The notes beneath the pieces are model-generated. The model worked only from the letters and a program-made list of their open reading frames with translations. It searched no databases and was not told the origin of the DNA. A DNA stretch of 64,000 nucleotides, taken from positions 67,886 to 131,885 of the forward strand of contig JAEOTB010000037.1 of the NCBI GenBank assembly GCA_016840065.1, read 5' to 3'. The stretch is from Candidatus Hermodarchaeota archaeon. GTDB lineage: Archaea; Asgardarchaeota; Hermodarchaeia; Hermodarchaeales; Hermodarchaeaceae. The position numbers and the translations under genes are program-made. Below are positions 6,483-47,128 of this stretch, piece after piece (position 1 is the stretch's first letter; each line of letters begins with the position of its first letter).

Positions 6483-7838
6483 CTACTTCTTTACTGTTAT
6501 CTTCTGTACTACTCCAACAGCCACTGTGCGACCACTATCACGAATCGCAAACCGACCCAGCTGCTTCATATCGGCAAACCGCTCTAACACAATTGGCTGC
6601 ACTGGACTGAACTTGACGATAGCTGATTCACCTTGTTTGATGAAGTCTGGCTTCTCCTCCACCGTCTCGCCAGTACGAGGATCAATCTTGCTGATAAGCT
6701 CAGTGAAAGTCGTTGCCATCTGGAGTGTGTGAGCGTGCATAACTGGTGTGTACCCAGCGGCTATGGCTCGTGGGTGATGGATTACGATTATTTGTCCAAC
6801 GAAATCTGTGATAACCTTGGGTGGGTCGCTGACATGACCCATGACATCACCACGTTGAACCTCGCCTTTTCCAATGCCACGAACATTGAAACCGATGTTG
6901 TCGCCCGGCTCAGCCTTCTGCATTTTCTCATGGTGCATCTCGATTGACTTGACTTCGCCCGTATGCCCAGAGGGCATGAAGATTACTTTATCGCCAACTT
7001 TCAAAACACCAGTTTCAACTCTACCAACGGGAACAGAGCCTACGCCAGTAATGGTGTAGCAGTCCTGGATTGGTACTCGCAATGGTGCTTTGAGTGGTTT
7101 CTCTGGCTGTACGAACTTGTCAAGAGCCTGGAGCAAGGTGGGACCTTTATACCAGGGCATGTTCTCACTAGCCTTATCCAGCCCATCTCCTGTCCAACCG
7201 CTGGTTGGGATGAAATCGACTTTGCTTGGATCGAATTGAGCACCCTGGAGCACTGAAGTGACTTCTGCCTTGATTTCCTCGTAGCGTTCTTGGCTCCAAG
7301 GAGGCGTAGAGTCGTCCATCTTGTTCACAGCAACAGCGACCTGCTCGATACCAAGGGTTCGGGCAAGGAATGCGTGCTCACGGGTCTGCCCGCCCGCACT
7401 GATTCCAGCTTCAAACTCACCCTTACGTGATGAAACGACAAGAATCGCCGCATCAGCCTGGCTGGCACCCGTAATCATGTGCAAGAATTAAGGAGCGTAC
7501 CCCTCAATTATTCTTGATGAAGTCCGCGTGCCCAGGAGCGTCAATCAGCGTGAAGTAGTGTTTTTGTGTCTCGAATTTTCGAAAAGCTAGATCGATTGTT
7601 AGCCCACGTTCTCGCTCTTCCTTCAAGCGATCCATTACTTACCCCTTCATATCGTGTGATATGAAGTGTAGGCGAACTTGAACGAGGCGTCTTTCGTTTC
7701 TGATGCTAGCTTTTCTAATTTGAGCATTTCTTGTTTCGTTAGCGCACCCGTGACATATACGAGGTGGCCCATTAGCGTTGATTTACCATGATCAACGTGA
7801 CCAATGATGATCAAGTTGATGTGTGGTTTAGTAGCCAT
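6483..7838 (-). CDS. tuf: Translation elongation factor EF-1alpha, interrupted by two BHB introns; join(7838..7668, 7638..7511, 7479..6483), 431 aa
   Basis: GHVDHGKST in exon 1. Exon 2 reads [42 protein letters not shown]. Exon 3 reads [10 protein letters not shown]...NKMD. Exon lengths 171+128+997=1296 nt form one intact frame. Confidence 0.95.
7480..7510 (-). other. BHB intron 2 in tuf mRNA (31 nt)
   Basis: UCAU-CAAG-AA|U-AAUUGAGGGG(UACG)CUCCUUAAUU-CUUG-CA|C-AUGA, a full hBHBh' motif. Removal gives DFIKN MITG. Confidence 0.92.
7639..7667 (-). other. BHB intron 1 in tuf mRNA (29 nt)
   Basis: GCCU-AC|A-CUUCAUAUC(ACAC)GAUAUGAAG-GGGU-AA|G. Removal gives FKFAY|VMDRLKEE. Confidence 0.9.
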
Positions 7839-14000: not shown

Positions 14001-16394
14001 GGCAATTCCCGTATTGTCAGTTCCCTCCCAAATAGCTGACAAACCAGTAGCGCTATAGTACTCACCCTCCAATGGTGATGCTATTACGACATCGGGTAAT
14101 GTGTTATCTACAACCACAATAAGGCTGTGAGTGGCTATCCAACCTACACCATCGGAGGCTATAGCAGCCAGGGTGTGGTTACCATCACACCACTCTTGAG
14201 TATCCCAAGGAAACAGAAAGGGAGGACAGGTCGTTGTGTTGTAGAGGAGAACACCATCAACGGACAGGACAACCCACAACACACCAGAGGGATTGATACC
14301 AAAATCATCTGCTGATACCTCCACGACAACGGTTTGGCTGAGAATTGTTCCCTCAGAGAGAAAATCCACCGTTACAATGGGTGGTGTGGCGTCAACATGA
14401 AGCGTTCGTAACAAGCTAGCCCAGTTCCCCACCCTATCTACTGCTGTGGTATTCACGGTGTATGTTCCTTCTATTGTGGGTACTGTCCATTCTTGGGTTT
14501 GTGAGCCTGTATCAGTTGTTGAGATCCTGTGATGGTAGTTATTGGGACCTGTGATGGTCAGGTTGGAAGCCGCCAACCCTGCTGGGGGATTGCCCTCATC
14601 GGTCTGCTGCCACACAAGACTACACAGTTTTCCCGCAGCAACATGAGCAGCATTGGCTGGGGCAGAGAAGGAAAGGAGGGGTGTCGTGCAATCAATCAGA
14701 TAGATACCGTGAATTGTTGTTGCACCCACTTCACCAGTTTGGGGGTTTACCGCAAATGCCATCACATCGTACCAGCCCTCCAATACACCAGCAACAACCT
14801 CTGTCAAGTAGCCATCACCACTCCCATTTACAGGAAGATAGAGATTACCACTTGGTTGTTCATAGACTTGGGTGCCATCACAGATAATTCGATATTTTGC
14901 AAAGGTGGGACCTGCTGCATAGGAGACAGTCACATTGAACTGATCGCCCACAGCCGCATAGGTTTGAGTCGAATCTGCTGTGACACTCCACCCCCCATGT
15001 GTTGCCAACCTGTTAACCGAGTTTGCGGAAAAAGTCCAAACACCTTCTGCAGGATTATTCACGAATATACTATACGACGCTTCACTGAGCGAAACAGAGC
15101 CTGATGGGTTGTTGGGGCTAGATTGGTAATTACTCCAGCCACAGGGGAGGCTGAGCGAGAAGCTCCCCGGTTGCCACTGGGCACCCGTAACTTGACTACT
15201 AAAGGAAATGCCCCAATCAGCAAATGAAGCACCACTGATAACGGAAAAGGTGGTGTCGGCGGTACGCTCCCAGCTAGCCTCCATTGATTCGTGGTGATTG
15301 AACACCGTCACAGGCCAATCCGAGGCACCGCTGTCTGAGCGAGTGAAATAATATGAAGTACCAGTACCACTGGCGCAAGTATCTAAAACACTCACATGAC
15401 CCTTTCCCCAGTCCACTCCATTTGACACCGCATACTGCTTGGTGGGATCCGCTTCACTTCTAAGAGCTAGGTCCAGGTCACTGGATCGAAGCTTGTGGAG
15501 AGCCCACAGGTTAGCATAGTCAAACCGCACCGCACTCCAATGACTACTGAACAGGGTTGAAGCAGTGGTCACCCAGACATTTAGACGAAGCTCAATGGTT
15601 GCCGCATGATCCGGTAGGGCGCTGTCAAAATGCAGGTTAACCTCATCGGTTACCCAGGTGTCCAGCGGCGAAGCCAAATCCATATCATAGGGGGTGGCTG
15701 CTAGTACGCTATCGACGTAGATTTGGGCGCATATTCGCACCCAGTTTTTGTAGCGAAAGCCAAGGGTTAGTTGGGTGCGGTGGAGGGGGAAGAGTCCGCG
15801 TGTGTCGCTGAACCAGCCCGGCGGCACCAAGAAGCTTTGGCTGAAGTAGCCCTGACAGGTACCCTGGTAGATAATCCAGCCGATGAGGAGGGGTGATTCG
15901 ATTTCTCCGTAGGATATTCCTTCTTCACTGGCAAAGGAGATTTGGGCGATTCCATCGGTGTGGTTGGTCCAAGGAGTGCCGTGGTCGAAGTGGTAGTCGC
16001 TGAGCCATTCGCTGCGCTGCCCCCATAAATCGCCCACATAGGAGGTGAAGAAATAGTCGAAGTAGGTTCCCTCCGTGGGCGGATCCACTTGGGGACCTAT
16101 CACTTCCAGCGACGAGGCTTCGGTCATGTAGCGGTTTGTGGTGGGTGTTGTACAACCTGCTGTAATAGTGCCAGAAAGGGGTGCAGAAGACCCTGAGAAA
16201 ATATCCACTCCACTTGTTGGAGGTATCAGTTGTTGTGGGTTTGGATTGGCGATTGGTAGAGTTTGCTGATGGTGAGAAGCTGACTCCCTTAGAGGAGGAG
16301 AGTCTGTAGTGAGGTGGGGGGATTGGGGGAAGGCGCTGATGCTGCCTAGAAAGAGAAGGAGGAGCACGCAGGCGATGGAACCATTCACCTTCAT
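8004..16394 (-). CDS. Giant (2796 aa) exported/membrane protein with tandem bacterial Ig-like (Big) repeats and a multi-TM C-terminus
   Basis: N-terminal signal peptide. Repeats of the form D-x-T-x-P...G-x-HT...A-x-D-x-A-G-N. Internal hydrophobic helices and a long hydrophobic C-terminus. Confidence 0.8.
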   Translation of the reverse strand: MKVNGSIACVLLLLFLGSISAFPQSPHLTTDSPPLRESASHHQQTLPIANPNPQQLIPPTSGVDIFSGSSAPLSGTITAGCTTPTTNRYMTEASSLEVIGPQVDPPTEGTYFDYFFTSYVGDLWGQRSEWLSDYHFDHGTPWTNHTDGIAQISFASEEGISYGEIESPLLIGWIIYQGTCQGYFSQSFLVPPGWFSDTRGLFPLHRTQLTLGFRYKNWVRICAQIYVDSVLAATPYDMDLASPLDTWVTDEVNLHFDSALPDHAATIELRLNVWVTTASTLFSSHWSAVRFDYANLWALHKLRSSDLDLALRSEADPTKQYAVSNGVDWGKGHVSVLDTCASGTGTSYYFTRSDSGASDWPVTVFNHHESMEASWERTADTTFSVISGASFADWGISFSSQVTGAQWQPGSFSLSLPCGWSNYQSSPNNPSGSVSLSEASYSIFVNNPAEGVWTFSANSVNRLATHGGWSVTADSTQTYAAVGDQFNVTVSYAAGPTFAKYRIICDGTQVYEQPSGNLYLPVNGSGDGYLTEVVAGVLEGWYDVMAFAVNPQTGEVGATTIHGIYLIDCTTPLLSFSAPANAAHVAAGKLCSLVWQQTDEGNPPAGLAASNLTITGPNNYHHRISTTDTGSQTQEWTVPTIEGTYTVNTTAVDRVGNWASLLRTLHVDATPPIVTVDFLSEGTILSQTVVVEVSADDFGINPSGVLWVVLSVDGVLLYNTTTCPPFLFPWDTQEWCDGNHTLAAIASDGVGWIATHSLIVVVDNTLPDVVIASPLEGEYYSATGLSAIWEGTDNTGIAYYQVYLDGVLLANTVDTMFLLSNLTESIHTLTVEAIDLAGNHQSTSNIFTTDATSPTLAITAPLEDSHTSSVNPRIQWSASDTTAGIATFTVYLDGTLAVELDGSYRQYTLTNLTDGSHTILVQAMDRAGNALARSVTFLIDSTAPILEVFLPVTEAGFTENTTLDVVVFVTDRHCETIELFIDGIFSGVAENTNETTFTIAVTAAPHTVLIKATDIAGNVAEYTEAFTVDLENPVVRIDTPTAGTILTGIVEITLFLADANMREAILLLDGEVVLFRLHSSGSHTLTLDTSTLPDGDHILTLIGYDLALRTCQAEQSVTLCNHPPTILTAKLSTLYGNATICDTDTLSVQVTLNATYPDDLLTLTVQLDTDGNSVPESFALSCYGSVWMTSGIIGPLQGMHSYTATVIAKSPAGASSEIIEFCVVATTQLTLSVPADLTTQQTTQITAIVTTSTGQPVAHQLIRFFLEGINGTSLLGEAYTNAEGEATLDWLVSQSLVGVVTLRAEFVGTSLLQAGEAEAKTTILNVFASLDDKQLIGSYILMNGPWIVICLAGLAFVDPKLLLFMFAGLGASLPGDISFLTFHEQLHHHAQTNLDAYAQDLLQFFQALNLSTFQVEPLTTVLGSFLLVGYRTAVDPTKHTVDAARLSLAEMLRLQALQQQLGDDLYYLGEGDLQRWCFDSNPLVEDEFLQSALQSTQLLSVEASPFATTPEYQVGEADWSRVKPYLAPTQVFEGSLSMGWFVPTFLFYGEVVVRGWDLGYESLDKYLENTILAVIHQKQVEVKVAETLAKLARLRDEVALQERIQEARDSLLSTAESMYKDAGSETWNQVGLEAQRLFDELIHYAKIRNLEEASYKLTGLLRLLKLNAGLEDRFGWQVVYDRSVQAILLFEAGYIEEPMYVIKGVAEALNRHSGKPLSLPEVVGELATQYAIKKVTDGQLSFFDPKAILGPAWDFITQCLSVLIEIGKTILMTLGMVLLQAIFGIITAVRNALTNIIFVPLEFLISKLLELPVIGFFLQAFLFGEDETSPPPPGASGTFTTPDYGAEAIYPTTLETFPYVNILDQALKCGRIGIMKEQIQGTIRKTLDKMKGLDWTTVKEIGILIPQIQEILPAMATLVEEGVMIDSQVRGLEKEILNSTPIPVIGSLKLTTEVLIFRHWAGIGDGRYAKGLYWQQASAVYEERMALAPPGQGTKRVYFEEENLGIVRDNFITYTHHKGKTYSTFQVIYRISDNADFQEARRNHGLPVHSDAVVAHIKNALILKPDRSNIDTAELAQQDTSLINHIKNQQGAILILPLNPTITARYKPSQAPTWSNRWIELPTFLIPTRTGFTGVSAKRKSFWCLWDLLNPNNAQIHTHYPGDIEGFSTKTIRGQYLLFAEFYSCIAGVPRGILCDEGPLFQTEAVKEVKRKYQNQLFIAAPPTLQELNPFIQGVLLSMKQRLDVVMKTKWNLFILKPQQNDEMPPKPDEPQLGGLRLVEFECREGHIDPLMGLTTLALTGTQLVNTPAGPVGVTMQLEPTHVKYRHVGLLNQYYGLRRTTRGFGENKLYRLTWSFWTARKNSARDRTWRYGLDDVTRDDLNTLIYFCAVLGVGRICPVPLQSDQEIDRGKTVRSLSIDEKIWSTYKEWGKLSFIYNGKDQTGRWGNPGGWPAIFENLDRTLGNSWQYGSRGGNTYKGGYYSRFYVFDRFVRQKFPSQIILETSYIQMLTGRARDQLTDRLKDYAKNLFFTIKQRVRQLLNPSRWKALLVAITITTAIQSILTSLGINTMDARYTSLAPLLVLIQNFAVVSLTSRALGGGLASTSSASTGSGLTSLFSSLLPLILSAIGTALFIFLTFTINTFLATLTQYGWLIGVVFSIFAIVLQYISGSVFSLGITATSLSATGLLSLVITGFGASLQALGFPFFTLADFAHLIATWILSVLSPIVRDSVVWLWYSVLLPVGKMVCNLTLAGVVKVLLNQVVGQIVRNLLGQILGVLVATVAPMLSPFQALLPL

Positions 16395-24901: not shown

Positions 24902-27550
24902 CTACCTCTTTTGGCTTAGGACGCGTTCGATAATAGCGGCGAGGTTTACGGCTTTCCCATGGTCGCTTCGAGCAGGGTCCACACCATCCTCTCCATACCT
25001 AAACTGGATGATAGTACCTTCCGAGTTTCGGACTGTTTCGTCATATTCGACCTTGATGTTCTGGAGTGCATTGATAAGGCGTCGCTGCATATAACCGCTA
25101 GTACTTGTTCTAACAGCTGTATCTACCAGTCCTTCCCGACCACCCATCGCATGAAAGAAAAATTCTACTGGGTCGAGTCCTCTACGGTAGCTTGATTCAA
25201 CGAAGCCACGGGCTTGGGGGCTTAGGTCGCCTGATTTGAAGTGTGGTAGTGTTCGTCCACGGTAGCCTCGAGAGATTCTTTTTCCACGTACTGCTTGCTG
25301 ACCTACGCAAGCTGCCATTTGGGCAAGGTTGAGCGCGTTTCCTTTGGCACCTGTTGATGTCATTATTACTGCGTGCTTGTCTAGTCCTAGTTCCTGACCT
25401 GCCACTGCTCCTGCCCCATCCCGCGCCTTGGACAAGAGTTCCATCATTAGATTCTCAAAGGTCTCCTCTAGTGATAAACCAGGTGTTCTTTGTAGTTCAT
25501 TTGCTCTAAAGGCTTGAATAAGTTTTAGCCCGTTTTCTTCTGCTTCTTTCAGGATGTCTTCAATTCGTCGGACAGCAGCAGATTCGAGAGTGACGTCGTC
25601 GATCCCCATGCTGAAACCGCTGTTAGTGATCAAGGTTACTAATAAGGGACACATCGAATCAAGAAACCGGCGAGCCTCACTGTTGCTATAGTCTTTGACA
25701 ATTCGGTGCAGTACGCTATTAGGTTGAGCTGCACCAAAGGCTTTCTTGTCGATAACACCTGTAAGCAGCTGGCCATTCCTAATTAATACGAAACTGTCGT
25801 AGAGACACTCTTCCTCCTGGCAAACGTCGCATTTACGGCAAACACTTGCCTTCAGAGAGAGATTCAGTTCCTTGGGGAGCAACATACTGAAAATCTGCTT
25901 TCCAGTCCACATTGGCTCTGGCTTTGTAACAGAGGGCTTTGGTAGGTCTTCTCGGTATCCTGCTGAAGCAAGTAACTGACAGGTCTGCGCCTTAGTGAAG
26001 AGAGTCCCCTTCCTTGTTAATAAGTAGGCAGATGAGATGTAGTCCTGAATCCCACCGATGATTGGTCCTCCATACCGAGGGCTAAGAATCTGCTCTTGAA
26101 CAAGCATCAAGATACGTGATTCAGCACGAGCCTCCTCACCCTGAGGAACATGAAGGTTCATCTCATCTCCATCAAAATCAGCGTTATAGGGGGGGCAAAC
26201 GCAAAGACTTAGCCTGAATGTTCGGTAAGGCATCACCTTTACTTCATGAGCCATGATTGACATTCTGTGTAGTGATGGTTGTCGATTAAATAGAACAATG
26301 TCCCCAGTGCGAAGATGGCGTTCAATGATGTGTCCAGCATCAAGCCCATCTGCATTTGTTTTTCGGTCTTTAACAAATCGGAGGTCAATTCGTTTGCCAT
26401 CTGGGCGTATGATGTAGTTGCACCCAGGATGTTCTTTTGGCCCTCGTAACACTAGTTGGCGCATATCCTCAATATTCCATTCAGTAACACGTTCAGGTAC
26501 AGTCAGTATTTTTGATATCTCGAGCGGAACGCCAACTTCATTGATAGAAAGGTTGGGATCGGGGGATATGACTGTACGGGCTGAGAAGTCTACCCTCTTA
26601 CCAGAGAGGTTGCTTCGGAACCGCCCCTCTTTACCTTTTAGGCGTTGAGCAAGTGTACGGAGTGCTCGACCAGACCTATGACGAGCGGGAGGAATCCCCG
26701 AGACCTCGTTATTGAAGTAAGTAGTAATGTGATACTGGAGGAGTTCCCATAGGTCTTCGACGATTAGTTGCGGTGCACCTGCTTCAATGTTTTCCCGGAG
26801 CCTCTGGTTAATGCGTATTACGTCGACTAGTTTATGTGTTAGGTCATCCTCGGATTTGACTCCTGATTCAAGTGTAATGGAGGGTCGAACTGCCACAGGG
26901 GGTACAGGTAGTACAACGAGAATCATCCACTCGGGACGTGATACACGAGTGTCTATTCCCATCAGGTAGCTATCTCCTTCTGGAATCCGCTCTAGCCGGT
27001 CGCGAATATCTGTTGGTGTTAGCCGCACACTGCCCTCCATTTTTTCTTCGTAGAAGGTCGTTGGTTTCTCATACTTGACCTTATATTGTTCTGCTTCGCA
27101 GTGTGGACATGCTTTTGGTTTAGCTGCATCTTTAAGTACCGCATCAGCCAAATCTTGGTCTAATTGACCCGTTTTTTCGAAGATTTCATCCATTTTTTGC
27201 TTATAGACAGGAAACAGCTCTAGCTTGAGCTTCAATCTAGCGCAACGTCTGCAGACCGATTTGAGGAATTTCTTGATTAACTTAGCAAAGCTTACATGCA
27301 TGACTGGACGTGATAATTCGATGTGACCGAAGTGTCCTGGACAGTCTCCTACACGATTTCCACATGTGCTACAACGTTGCCCAGGCTCAATTGTTCCGAG
27401 CTTACGATCCATAAGACCAGAGGAAATTGGGAGCCCGTCCTCGTCGTATGTATCGGCTGTCACGATTTGTGTGACACTCATCTTGCGGATAATTTCTGGT
27501 GCAAGGAGTCCAAACCAAATGCTTCCTATTTTTTTCAATCGGTATGATAT
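24902..27550 (-). CDS. rpoA1: RNA polymerase subunit A' (Rpo1N); start is either ATA 27550 or TTG 27538
   Basis: CPGHFGHIEL, catalytic NADFDGD, FNRQPSLH. Confidence 0.98.
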   Translation of the reverse strand: MSYRLKKIGSIWFGLLAPEIIRKMSVTQIVTADTYDEDGLPISSGLMDRKLGTIEPGQRCSTCGNRVGDCPGHFGHIELSRPVMHVSFAKLIKKFLKSVCRRCARLKLKLELFPVYKQKMDEIFEKTGQLDQDLADAVLKDAAKPKACPHCEAEQYKVKYEKPTTFYEEKMEGSVRLTPTDIRDRLERIPEGDSYLMGIDTRVSRPEWMILVVLPVPPVAVRPSITLESGVKSEDDLTHKLVDVIRINQRLRENIEAGAPQLIVEDLWELLQYHITTYFNNEVSGIPPARHRSGRALRTLAQRLKGKEGRFRSNLSGKRVDFSARTVISPDPNLSINEVGVPLEISKILTVPERVTEWNIEDMRQLVLRGPKEHPGCNYIIRPDGKRIDLRFVKDRKTNADGLDAGHIIERHLRTGDIVLFNRQPSLHRMSIMAHEVKVMPYRTFRLSLCVCPPYNADFDGDEMNLHVPQGEEARAESRILMLVQEQILSPRYGGPIIGGIQDYISSAYLLTRKGTLFTKAQTCQLLASAGYREDLPKPSVTKPEPMWTGKQIFSMLLPKELNLSLKASVCRKCDVCQEEECLYDSFVLIRNGQLLTGVIDKKAFGAAQPNSVLHRIVKDYSNSEARRFLDSMCPLLVTLITNSGFSMGIDDVTLESAAVRRIEDILKEAEENGLKLIQAFRANELQRTPGLSLEETFENLMMELLSKARDGAGAVAGQELGLDKHAVIMTSTGAKGNALNLAQMAACVGQQAVRGKRISRGYRGRTLPHFKSGDLSPQARGFVESSYRRGLDPVEFFFHAMGGREGLVDTAVRTSTSGYMQRRLINALQNIKVEYDETVRNSEGTIIQFRYGEDGVDPARSDHGKAVNLAAIIERVLSQKR

Positions 27551-31439: not shown

Positions 31440-31599
31440 TGGTCCCGCCTCCCGGATTTGAACCAGGTTATGGGTCCTTGAAATGCTCCAAGGACAAACC
31501 ATCTGGTTACTGCCTTGACTGACACCACGTCATAACCCGGGGGGCTCAGGGTGCGAGTAATCTACAGCCAGACGCTCTACCGGACTAAGCTAAGGCGGG
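31440..31599 (-). tRNA. tRNA-Tyr(GUA) with two introns: 54 nt at 37/38 (31508-31561) and 29 nt at 48/49 (31468-31496)
   Basis: CCCGCCU/AGGCGGG acceptor. BHB helices CUGU:GCAG and AUGG:CCAU. Spliced length 77 nt. Confidence 0.92.
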
Positions 31600-32223: not shown

Positions 32224-32829
32224 TTGGTAGATGAGCATCCACTGGAAGAAGTTTCTCTAGATGAAGATAAGGAAGAACCGCGCCCTCAGCTCCCAGAGGA
32301 ACCTATAACAGCGAAGCTGTCCAGAGGACGTGTCGTAGTTAAGGGGGAGATGGCCCGTGTTCTATACGACGCTGGGCACTTTGGCACTTTGAAAAGTGAA
32401 TTAGAACTCGTCTTAGAGGCTGAGGAAGCCCTCTTACTTATACGACGAAAGCGAATTCAGGTCTTTGACAGAAAAGGAACTGAACTAGATTTCTCGGTGT
32501 TGCTTCAGATATTATCAGAACGCCACCCTAGATTATGGACGCAGTATCTTGTATACAGTGACCTTAGGAGCAGAGGTTATGTTGTCCGAACAGGCTATGG
32601 AAAAGGACTCTGGTTTCGCGTTTATCCACGGGGCGCCAAACTAAACGAGGCAACAGCGAAATATTTTGTGTGCGCCATATCAGAGGGTTCACCACTTAAA
32701 GTAGCAGAACTTGAGAAGCTTAGCAGTCTAGCGTTAAGGAACCGGAAAAAGCTGATGCTAGCTGTCTTGGATAGACAAGGTGAAACAACCTACTATCTAG
32801 TTTCACACGCCGACATCACGGCAGACTAG
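32224..32829 (+). CDS. endA: tRNA-intron (BHB) splicing endonuclease subunit, probably the structural subunit
   Basis: EEALLL, YLVYSDLRSRGYVVRTG, FRVY, RKKLMLAVLD. No catalytic His after FRVY. Confidence 0.85.
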   Translation: MVDEHPLEEVSLDEDKEEPRPQLPEEPITAKLSRGRVVVKGEMARVLYDAGHFGTLKSELELVLEAEEALLLIRRKRIQVFDRKGTELDFSVLLQILSERHPRLWTQYLVYSDLRSRGYVVRTGYGKGLWFRVYPRGAKLNEATAKYFVCAISEGSPLKVAELEKLSSLALRNRKKLMLAVLDRQGETTYYLVSHADITAD

Positions 32830-33017: not shown

Positions 33018-33704
33018 TCATTTCACTAAACGTTTGATATCCGAGTCAGTGCCCACATAAACAGCGTTAGTTTGGTGGGGAAATAGGCCAGTTTCTAGAA
33101 CCCCAGGTATTGATATCAATTGGCAATCTAGTTGGGCAGCATCAATGATTTCTGAAAATGTCACATCGACGATGAAATTTCCATTATCGGTGATTACAGG
33201 ACCAGCTTTGCGATGGGCTTGCCTCACCTTTGGCGTACCCCCAAGTTCTCTAATTCTCTTCAAGGAAAGTGACAAAGCAGGAGGTATCACCTCAACAGGC
33301 ACAGGCATTTTCACACCCAGCTTCGAAACAAGTTTTCCTTGATCTACGATAACGATGAACTCCTCGGCGGTTTCAGCAAGAATCTTTTCCCGCAAAAGCG
33401 CGGCACCACCCCCCTTGATTAACGCGAGTTGACTATCAACCTCATCTGCCCCGTCAATTGCAAGTGGAATCGTCGATATACTGGTTAGGCATTCTACTCT
33501 AAATCCAGCAGCTCGGAGCCGATGACCAGTAGCAAAGGAGCTAGGAACGGTTACAATCGAGATCTTGTCCGCAGCCACCTTTTCTATCAACAGGTCTATG
33601 AAAATATCAACCGTCGAACCAGTGCCAACGCCAAGGGTCATTCCATCAGTAACGTGGACCAGCGCTGCTTCAGCAGCCCTTCGCTTCTCATCTATTGCAG
33701 CCAT
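33018..33704 (-). CDS. rpiA: Ribose-5-phosphate isomerase A
   Basis: GVGTGST, DGADEVD, IKGGGAALLREK, TDNGN. Confidence 0.97.
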   Translation of the reverse strand: MAAIDEKRRAAEAALVHVTDGMTLGVGTGSTVDIFIDLLIEKVAADKISIVTVPSSFATGHRLRAAGFRVECLTSISTIPLAIDGADEVDSQLALIKGGGAALLREKILAETAEEFIVIVDQGKLVSKLGVKMPVPVEVIPPALSLSLKRIRELGGTPKVRQAHRKAGPVITDNGNFIVDVTFSEIIDAAQLDCQLISIPGVLETGLFPHQTNAVYVGTDSDIKRLVK

Positions 33705-34329: not shown

Positions 34330-34435
34330 TGGAGCCTCGGGCGAGGATTGAACTCACGACCAGCAGCTTACAAGGTTCAACGTTACCGGTTTGGTTTCCG
34401 GAAACTCTGTCGCTCTACCACTGAGCTACCGAGGC
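34330..34435 (-). tRNA. tRNA-Thr(UGU) with 31-nt intron in the anticodon stem (34376-34406, 30/31)
   Basis: GCCUCGG acceptor, CU-UGU-AA loop. BHB CGAC:GUUG with bulges AG|A and AA|C. Confidence 0.9.
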
Positions 34436-39512: not shown

Positions 39513-39666
39513 TCACCCTCCACTCCAGTCTCATCTTGTATCATGCTTACATACCGTCAAGCCCAGTCTTGACGTCTTAACTTGGTATATCATTCACAGA
39601 TATGATTGTGGTGAAGGAATAACACACCACTCATAACACATAACCAATCAAAATCATCCCTAGGTG

Positions 39667-40969
39667 ATGAACTTGGGTTCAAGTACGCCTAGTAGTGCTA
39701 CTACAAAGTATGAAATCCGATGTAAAATAGAAATTAGCGGAGTTGTTGAGACTCCAGATGTCGTTGGAGCGCTCTTTGGTCAAACAGAGGGCCTACACTT
39801 CATGATACGCGTTTCATGAAGGGGTAATCGGTGAAGATTTAGATCTGAGAGAACTGCAGCAGTCTGGACGAATAGGTCGAATAAAGGTTGAACTACACTC
39901 AGAGGGAGGAAAATCCCGCGGAATAATAGTAATCCCTTGCAGCCTTGACCGTACTGAAACAGCCATTCTTGCAGCGGCATTGGAGACAGTTGACAGAGTT
40001 GGACCGTGTTCAGCGAAAATCACTCTGGAGAAGGTTGAAGATGTCCGTGACTCTAAACGCAAACAGATTATTGATCGAGCTGTGGCTTTACTGCGTGTAT
40101 GGGAGGGTGAAACCTCTCCAGGGGCACAGGAGATAACCGATAAAGTTACACGTGAAACGAAGACAGCAGAAATCACTCGATTTAATGGGCTTCCTGCGGG
40201 TCCTTCTGTTCAAGAATCAGATACAATAATCGTCGTAGAAGGGAGGGCTGATGTCCTCGCATTGCTCCGAGCAGGAATAAAGAACGTTGTTGCAGTTGAG
40301 GGTACCAGTATTCCTCCTTCCATCATAAAACTAGCAAAAACAAAAACGATTATTGCCTTCCTTGACGGCGATAGGGGTGGCGACTTGATTCTTAAAGAAT
40401 TGTCTCAGGTTACAGATATCAAGTTTGTAGCGCGAGCGCCAGCGGGACGTGAGGTTGAAGAACTTACAACAAAGGAGATAACCAAAGCTCTTAGAAATAA
40501 AGTGCCTGCATCCCAGGTTGTTGGACGGATAAAACGAGGGGTAAGCGAGTCGGCAACAACAAGAGCCTCTTCAACTCCAAAACGCAGAACTCGCCGAACA
40601 ACACAGAAAACAACTGCACCGCGGCGAACTGCAACCCGTTCTAAGACCACGACCAGAAGTGTTACACGACCAAAAAGTGGAAGCATCCCTAAACCGATTC
40701 GAGAATTAGCTGAGAAAATACAAGAGACAATGACTGCAATGATACTCGATAAGGATAAGAAGGTCTTGAAAGAAGTTCATGTCGCAGAACTGGCTTCAAT
40801 GCTGCAAGAAATAGAAAAAGCGAAAACAATCATTCTCGATGGTGTAATCACTCAGCGACTGGTAGACATCGCTGGTGAACGTGGAGTGACCCTAATCATA
40901 GGCGCGAGAACCGGTAAAATTGTAAAGAGACCCGTGAAAATCAAGATACACACATTCAACGATTTATGA
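39667..40969 (+). CDS. dnaG: Archaeal DnaG (primase / exosome-associated), interrupted by one BHB intron; join(39667..39796, 39828..40969), 423 aa
   Basis: Exon 1 reads TTKYEI...[19 protein letters not shown]. Exon 2 reads [19 protein letters not shown]...VVEGRAD...DGDRGG. Exon lengths 130+1142=1272 nt are in frame. Start could be TTG 39673. Confidence 0.94.
39797..39827 (+). other. BHB intron in dnaG mRNA (31 nt)
   Basis: GCCU-AC|A-CUUCAUGA(UACGCGUU)UCAUGAAG-GGGU-AA|U. Removal restores GQTEGLLG. Confidence 0.9.
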
Positions 40970-46298: not shown

Positions 46299-46406
46299 GG
46301 GCCGATGGTCTAGCTATCCAATTGGGAAACTCCCTTTGGACTAGAAGGTTATGACACCGCGCTTACACCGCGGTGGTCGGGAGTTCGAATCTCCCTCGGC
46401 CCACCA
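46299..46406 (+). tRNA. tRNA-Val(UAC) with 31-nt D-loop intron (46316-46346, 17/18)
   Basis: GGGCCGA/UCGGCCC acceptor, CU-UAC-AC loop. BHB CUAG:CUAG with bulges CU|A and AA|G. Confidence 0.93.
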
Positions 46407-46629: not shown

Positions 46630-46744
46630 CATACCTTCTCTTACCCTCCTACTTGTCCTTCCCTCTACTCTTCTCTTTCACTTACTGCATATGAAAATCA
46701 ATCCCAGAAATGGTTAAATATGGTGGAATAATGTGAGGCATTTG

Positions 46745-47090
46745 GACAGTGAGCCTAGGCGGGGGGCTAGAAGCCCCGCAGCACGACTACGGGCTGGCCA
46801 AGGTTCCCCTCTACCGCAAATACTCTATAGCGGGCTGAATGCCGGCGTGAGGCTTCCTAACCCGGTGTACGACTCGCAGTTCGTTGGCAGTGAAGATCCG
46901 CCTCGGAGGATCGCAGGTGGTGGTAGGCTTTTCGTAGGAAGGGCTGAATCACCTCTAGCGTGTGAACCCAGCGAGGCCCTGGCGGGAGCAGCGTAAGCGC
47001 GCACTGTTGGTGCTTCCGAGATTCCCGGGTCGGAGACCTGTCTGTGGGTACGGCGGCGGTGAAGGTTGTCAATTGTCGGGGTTCACTGTC
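46745..47090 (+). ncRNA. ffs: SRP (7S) RNA containing a 31-nt BHB intron in the Alu domain
   Basis: Terminal helix GACAGUGAGCC/GGUUCACUGUC, Alu start CUAGGCGGGGGG, helix 8 AGG-CCC(UGGC)GGG-AGCAG. Length 346 nt, or 315 nt after intron removal. Confidence 0.9.
46771..46801 (+). other. BHB intron in SRP RNA (31 nt)
   Basis: GGCU-AG|A-AGCCC..(CACGA)..GGGCU-GGCC-AA|G. Removal restores the helix-3 loop UAGGG, complementary to helix-4 loop CUCUA. Confidence 0.8.
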
Positions 47091-47128
47091 TACCTTTTTT
47101 TATTCTGCTAGCCTTTTTCGATTAGAAC

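Follow-up and report, generated by a model that had tools for sequence, protein, structure and literature searches.

A probable relaxed bulge-helix-bulge intron in the SRP RNA Alu domain of Hermodarchaeia

SRP RNA is universal and essential. Canonical bulge-helix-bulge (BHB) introns of the hBHBh' form have a 4-bp central helix, two 3-nt bulges on opposite strands, and outer and inner helices, and are cut after the second base of each bulge. Outside tRNA and rRNA, the cbf5 pre-mRNA of Crenarchaeota reportedly carries a BHB intron that is cut by an (alpha-beta)2 endonuclease; to our knowledge, mRNA introns of this type have been described for essentially one gene. In Thermoproteus tenax and T. 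uzoniensis the SRP RNA gene is circularly permuted, and its RNA matures via a BHB that is processed by the heterotetrameric tRNA splicing endonuclease, with probable involvement of RtcB (Plagens et al., 2015, eLife, PMC4731332), and the permuted SRP genes were suggested to derive from an ancestor with simple BHB introns (Plagens et al., 2015, PMC4731332). Relaxed tRNA introns of the HBh' and hBH types are cut by (alpha-beta)2 EndA, for which the L1/CSL loop is required, and Asgard archaea have an (alpha-beta)2 EndA with a loop giving broad specificity, i.e. cleavage of relaxed motifs (Kaneta et al., 2018, PMC5829648). Non-canonical and multiple tRNA introns were described in Atabeyarchaeia and Freyarchaeia (Valentin-Alvarado et al., 2024, PMC11291895; bioRxiv 10.64898/2026.10.13.758758). 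Full-text literature searches turned up no published SRP RNA with an internal intron, in agreement with an earlier note on this DNA, which had proposed such an intron and knew of none described.

All coordinates are positions in the window, the whole 64,000-nt stretch that was analyzed (Candidatus Hermodarchaeota archaeon, JAEOTB010000037.1). The SRP RNA gene was matched by Rfam model RF01857 (Archaea_SRP) over model positions 1-317 at 103.9 bits, above the gathering score of 96.5 and over the full model, as expected of an archaeal SRP RNA. It was the one RF01857 match in the whole genome (2.59 Mb, 131 contigs, 84% complete). The spacing of the TATA-like box TTAAATAT upstream of the gene would be compatible with an archaeal promoter, and the run of 7 T directly after the gene is likely its terminator. 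By its Rfam ends the gene is 342 nt long, or 311 nt once 46771-46801 is removed; the 31-nt reduction given in the earlier note was retained, while its lengths of 346 and 315 nt were replaced by these. Features and their coordinates are collected in Table 1.

Table 1. Features of the SRP RNA gene and its proposed intron, with the EndA paralogue of the window and the helix-8 inserts of other loci
Feature	Coordinates	Strand	Basis or remark
TATA-like box TTAAATAT	46714..46721	+	~27 nt upstream of SRP RNA 5' end; read from sequence
SRP (7S) RNA gene	46747..47088	+	RF01857
Exon 1 (predicted): helix 2, 5' strand of helix 3 and loop bases UAG	46747..46770	+	cmscan alignment; BHB-rule cut after AG of AGA bulge
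Central helix H, 5' strand GGCU	46765..46768	+	pairs with 46796-46799; paired in 13/13 distinct sequences
5' bulge AGA, predicted cut after AG	46769..46771	+	invariant in 18 sequences
Proposed 31-nt intron	46771..46801	+	Rfam insertion; BHB finder
Inner stem h' AGCCC/GGGCU, 5 bp, with irregular upper stem and variable apical loop	46772..46795	+	sequences compared between genomes
Central helix H, 3' strand: GGCC here, GGCU in most relatives	46796..46799	+	
3' bulge AA|G and 1-3 extra bases before outer helix	46800..46805	+	4 nt with slipped pairing, otherwise 6 nt
Exon 2 (predicted): last loop G, 3' strand of helix 3, helix 4, helix 5 and S domain	46802..47088	+	cmscan alignment
CUCUA of helix-4 loop, partner of helix-3 loop	46823..46827	+	read from sequence
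Run of 7 T directly after SRP RNA	47095..47101	+	read from sequence
EndA paralogue without catalytic His	32224..32829	+	PF01974, 70 bits
Helix-8 inserts	L183:264-289, L184:264-287, L185:281-298, L186:284-301	RNA strand of each locus	
Helix-8 inserts	L187:265-284, L188:265-284, L192:278-308	RNA strand of each locus	

Several other peculiarities of this SRP RNA were observed. Its helix-8 loop (46980-46983) reads UGGC, which is non-GNRA, versus GGGA in all relatives (16-17 compared); a 2-nt deletion beside helix 4 (46828-46830) was unique among 17 relatives; and its Rfam score was the lowest of its class. The UGGC loop and the deletion could be assembly or consensus errors, or real divergence in a normally invariant tetraloop.

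The helix-3 loop, normally ~5 nt, held 32 inserted bases versus 2 allowed by the RF01857 model. Its letters run GGGGGG CU AG|A (46761-46771), a hairpin AGCCC...GGGCU (46772-46795), GGCC AA|G (46796-46802) and then GUUCCCC, and the BHB finder reported the insert as ggggGGCT[AG|A]agccc..gggctGGCC[AA|G]. The oversized loop with GGCU-AG|A-hairpin-GGCC-AA|G described in the earlier note was thus present as written. Of the BHB that the note had drawn from it, the 4-bp GGCU/GGCC helix, the 3-nt AGA bulge and the 5-bp inner stem were recovered, whereas the 3' side departs from the canonical hBHBh' form in having 4-6 nt rather than 3, with the outer helix GGGG/CCCC not adjoining a 3-nt bulge. The arrangement is that of the relaxed HBh' form, in which one helix-bulge-helix unit is intact and the second cut falls in a looser loop, two bases beyond the central helix, and it is the same as that of the dnaG intron of the window (described below). 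Removal of 46771-46801 gives GGGGGGCUAG^GGUUCCCC.

BHB-like motifs of this quality numbered 58 in the window (both strands) versus ~43 in shuffles. Because the motif is this frequent, its presence alone is no evidence and its exact placement counts; what goes beyond chance here is that the motif brackets the Rfam insertion exactly and that the product equals the sequence found in homologues. Hits of 29-31 nt were over-represented in the window (9 of the 58 versus ~2 expected). Further hits of this length with good flanking helices were located at 16070-16100 (+), 16231-16259 (+) and 25195-25224 (+), and on the minus strand at 7480-7510 (-) and 33290-33320 (-); some of these five are probably inside protein-coding genes.

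No excision other than that of 46771-46801 yields CUAGGG(U/C)U, which is how the intron-less Asgard SRP RNAs L006, L026 and L200 natively read; these RNAs likewise have CUCUA in the helix-4 loop. The cuts given by the BHB rule therefore coincide with both boundaries given by the intron-less homologues. Cuts after the second base of each bulge would leave CUAG^GG(U/C)UCCCC, collinear with these three RNAs and with the UAGGG/CUCUA complementarity kept, as expected of a functional mature RNA. The comparative evidence thus favors exactly the intron boundaries of the earlier note, as a relaxed rather than a canonical motif.

The loops of helices 3 and 4 covary across Asgard SRP RNAs (UAGCG/CGCUA, UAGGG/CCCUA, UGCCC/GGGCA and UCGGG/CUCGA), and since they change together the mature helix-3 loop is constrained. 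In the spliced RNA, UAGGG pairs with CUCUA over 5 bp, one of them G-U, as had been claimed. The accompanying statement that the pairing spans the junction only after splicing was overstated, since the UAGA of the unspliced RNA can still pair with UCUA of the helix-4 loop and so make 4 of the 5 loop-loop pairs.

The Hermodarchaeia set consisted of 19 genomes (one family, two genera), and SRP RNA was found in 16. The same insert was present in all 16, with SRP RNAs of 338-342 nt. Across 18 aligned copies identity was 97% per column, and the varying positions of the insert region were the apical loop of the hairpin and two stem positions at which the changes are wobble-compatible. Also variable among these copies is the final base of the GGCY strand, which gives G-C or G-U with G46765. 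Across the 16 SRP genes the apical loop was variable and the core of the motif constant. G46802 was replaced by A in one of the genomes, whose spliced loop would be UAGAG, a perfect match to CUCUA. In a pattern scan of species-representative genomes, the same helix-3 segment was found in MAGs titled Candidatus Hermodarchaeota, Hermodarchaeum yapensis and Promethearchaeota, and DNA of the window was found in marine-sediment metagenomes.

An unrelated insert of 30-31 nt was found in the same helix-3 loop, 2 nt further on, in Atabeyarchaeia (L034, L039, L047, L194 and L195; two complete genomes plus two MAGs). The motif around it is a canonical hBHBh' with an 8-bp outer helix, a central CUAG/CUAG helix and bulges GG|A and AA|C, and the inner stem differs between the two genera, with 7 bp in one and 4 bp of another sequence in the second. 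Removal of this insert gives GGGGGGCUAGGG^CUCCCC, the mature sequence predicted for most Hermodarchaeia. Between Hermodarchaeia and Atabeyarchaeia the motif is thus kept while the interior of the insert differs, a comparison that has no power within Hermodarchaeia.

Inserts of 18-31 nt were also found in the helix-8 tetraloop in 7 SRP genes of four other Asgard families (Table 1). They are designed as CGGG[AG|A]..CYYG[A(A/U)|G] with unrelated interiors, and their removal gives GGCCCGGGAG^GGAGCA, the native helix-8 apex of most Hermodarchaeia. The 5' bulge AG|A is common to these inserts and to the helix-3 insert of Hermodarchaeia.

Extra short hairpins of another kind were observed between helices 3 and 4 of the Alu domain (e.g., GGAGGG-UUUA-UCCCUCC) in L185, L186, L192, L193, L007, L006, L041, L043 and L048, among records labelled Asgard and Bathyarchaeota. 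A scan that included L185, L192 and L041 found no BHB motif around them, and they were rejected as BHB introns and are probably stable expansions. A 22-nt Rfam insertion in the helix-4 loop region was seen in the SRP RNAs L189 and L190 of another Asgard family.

Inserts of the same length were also found in other genes of the window. A 31-nt canonical BHB (CUAG/CUAG, bulges CU|A and AA|G) occupies 46316-46346 (+) in the D-loop of a tRNA; the unspliced region was misread by ARAGORN as an intron-containing tRNA-Ser, and with the intron removed it was read as a clean tRNA-Val(UAC). Relative to the Rfam model, 31 additional bases lie in the anticodon loop of the tRNA at 34333-34435 (-) and 54 in that of the tRNA at 31443-31599 (-), which carries a second insert of 31 bases before the T arm. 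The dnaG gene is split by a 31-nt insert at 39797-39827 (+). Its exon 1 (39664-39795) corresponds to positions 1-30 of the NCBIfam profile NF003108 and its exon 2 (39830-40966) to positions 32-419, the profile residue missing between them being the split codon. The insert adopts an HBh'-type fold, GCCU[AC|A]...GGGU[AA|U], and resembles a BHB-type intron, here within a protein-coding gene that is essential. Because the dnaG exons flank this insert on the profile, splicing in this organism must extend to an HBh'-type motif in a transcript that is not a tRNA.

Two EndA genes (PF01974) were found in the genome. In the paralogue encoded in the window, Thr is aligned to the His of KEHSVY in M. jannaschii EndA (1a79), and this protein is a probable structural beta subunit. 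The alpha subunit (contig C85; L201:1222-1779) matched the A. pernix catalytic subunit 3p1z_B (E = 6e-45); Tyr, His and Lys are present, with GPGIDH and the catalytic Lys, and K44 is aligned to the Lys of the Crenarchaea-specific loop. A catalytic subunit with the Lys of the L1/CSL loop is thus encoded together with a non-catalytic subunit, which suggests an (alpha-beta)2 enzyme as predicted from the protein sequences. RtcB was matched at 566 bits, so that both a splicing endonuclease and the RtcB ligase are encoded in this genome.

RNA data were available for part of the gene. Contigs from four metatranscriptome runs (small word shares; aligned at 85% likeness) span only 46831-47080 and stop short of the junction. 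One 282-nt RNA contig has 86 unaligned bases upstream of 46885, which reach roughly as far as the predicted 3' splice site. The junction pattern GGCGGGGGGCTN{0,6}YTCCCCT is too short to be specific and matched at least 119 stretches in metagenome contigs; among the matches listed, none was SRP-like by blastn and none had the TAGGCGGGGGGCTAG context.

The insert could alternatively be a lineage-specific expansion hairpin that is kept in the mature SRP RNA, projecting from the loop of a normal helix 3. By constrained folding the two structures are isoenergetic (-18.5 kcal/mol for the BHB fold versus -18.7 for an intact helix 3 with the added hairpin); an unrelated minimum-energy fold of the segment, without the BHB, is better than both (-21.7 kcal/mol), and the folding-energy z-score of the segment is ~0. 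No pair of the motif was altered on both sides within Hermodarchaeia (98.6% of cells paired), and the change between G-C and G-U in the central helix affects one strand only (13 distinct sequences). Variable columns made up 10 of 31 in the insert versus 107 of 311 in the exons, so conservation of the insert, which is fixed throughout the class, equals that of the exons, a pattern also expected of a functional expansion helix. Energies, covariation within the class and substitution rate consequently do not discriminate between the readings, and neither would a higher cmsearch score for the spliced sequence, because removal of any insertion raises that score. The 4-6-nt 3' bulge, the missing energy advantage and two-sided pair changes, the exon-like conservation, the UAGA/UCUA pairing before splicing and the BHB-less hairpins between helices 3 and 4 of other lineages all speak against an intron and, apart from the bulge and the pair changes, for a retained hairpin. 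However, a retained hairpin leaves unexplained why the 4 bases that precede the AGA bulge pair with the 4 that follow the hairpin, why cuts by the BHB rule match exactly the loop of intron-less relatives, why a different insert lies in the same loop of Atabeyarchaeia within a canonical BHB, and why length and bulge letters are shared with introns of the same window. This explanation was judged unlikely.

A BHB intron in another register, with the central helix CUAG/CUGG (46767-46770 with 46794-46797), would remove 27 nt (46773-46799) and leave a longer loop starting with UAGAA. It was listed by the BHB finder with 6 bp in the outer helix, but it needs 3 extra bases in the 3' bulge, its inner stem has 3 bp versus 5, and its energy is -11.9 versus -18.5 kcal/mol; its product would be 4 nt longer than every intron-less homologue and would be without the GG that pairs with the helix-4 loop in relatives. 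This register is very improbable. The low Rfam score, the UGGC helix-8 loop and the deletion near helix 4 would fit a decaying or mis-assembled gene copy in which the insert is biologically meaningless; near-identical inserts in 16 of 16 related genomes from independent assemblies, the status of this gene as the sole SRP RNA match in its genome and the presence of the SRP RNA of relatives in RNA libraries make such a copy scarcely credible. Segment 46771-46801 is, by contrast, probably a relaxed (HBh'-type) BHB intron in the helix-3 loop (L2) of the SRP RNA Alu domain. This reading is favored because the product is collinear with intron-less homologues on whose boundaries the BHB cuts fall, because in Atabeyarchaeia the same loop holds another insert, enclosed by a canonical BHB, and because the helix-8 inserts of other Asgard families share its design. 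It is favored further by the 31-nt introns in tRNA-Val and dnaG of the same window, by the two-subunit EndA and RtcB encoded in the genome, and by the presence of the insert in all 16 Hermodarchaeia SRP genes with a variable apical loop and a constant core.

Excision of this intron would most probably be carried out by the tRNA-splicing enzymes. In the precursor, GGCU (46765-46768) would pair with GGCC (46796-46799) to form the 4-bp central helix, the 3-nt AGA bulge and the 5-bp inner stem would present the 5' cut site, and the 3' cut would fall two bases beyond the central helix (AA|G), within the 4-6-nt bulge. The two-subunit splicing endonuclease would cut at both sites and RtcB would join the exons to GGGGGGCUAG-GGUUCCCC. 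Joining would close helix 3 on a UAGG(G) loop, which would then pair with CUCUA of the helix-4 loop. We infer cleavage and ligation of this SRP RNA from an insert, a motif, a collinear product, enzymes and parallel introns that were themselves observed.

SRP RNA would join the hosts of an already known kind of intron, and the case is of interest chiefly as one element of a broader Asgard pattern. The SRP insert, the dnaG intron and the helix-8 inserts together suggest that the substrate range of Asgard BHB splicing is much wider than published. We lean towards the view that SRP biogenesis in Hermodarchaeia and several other Asgard classes depends on the tRNA-splicing endonuclease and RtcB, within a general use of short BHB introns in housekeeping RNAs and mRNAs (SRP RNA, dnaG and others). 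If this is true, protein-only splicing by cutting and rejoining would be an ordinary part of how genes are expressed in the archaea closest to eukaryotes, and no peculiarity of tRNA, which bears on the rise of intron-rich gene expression near the origin of eukaryotes. With an internal SRP intron, the targeting of proteins would be linked to the machinery that splices tRNAs. Annotation is affected as well, since gene finders for RNA and for protein give such intron-bearing genes too low a score or cut them short.

Compared with the described systems, the cbf5 intron is analogous to the dnaG intron of the window and differs from the SRP case in its mRNA host and in its phylum. The tRNA introns of Atabeyarchaeia and Freyarchaeia are likewise short BHB introns at non-canonical sites in Asgard archaea, and tRNAs of the window have them too; the two reports on them (PMC11291895; bioRxiv 10.64898/2026.10.13.758758) deal with tRNA genes only and do not contain 'SRP' in their text, and the 2026 preprint is without Hermodarchaeia. 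The relaxed HBh' and hBH tRNA introns share with the present insert one well-formed bulge-helix unit and a looser second site, and the EndA alpha of this genome has the L1/CSL loop; their substrates are pre-tRNAs, whereas the substrate here would be an SRP RNA. In Thermoproteus, as is proposed here for Hermodarchaeia, maturation of SRP RNA depends on a BHB and the splicing endonuclease. The Thermoproteus SRP belongs to Thermoproteales and the present one to Asgard archaea; in the former the gene halves are swapped, the BHB forms between leader and trailer and the mature RNA is circular, whereas the Hermodarchaeia gene is collinear, with a proposed short intron in an Alu loop and a predicted linear product. 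An intron of this kind would provide the 'simple BHB intron' stage from which, as Plagens et al. (2015) postulated, the permuted SRP genes arose.
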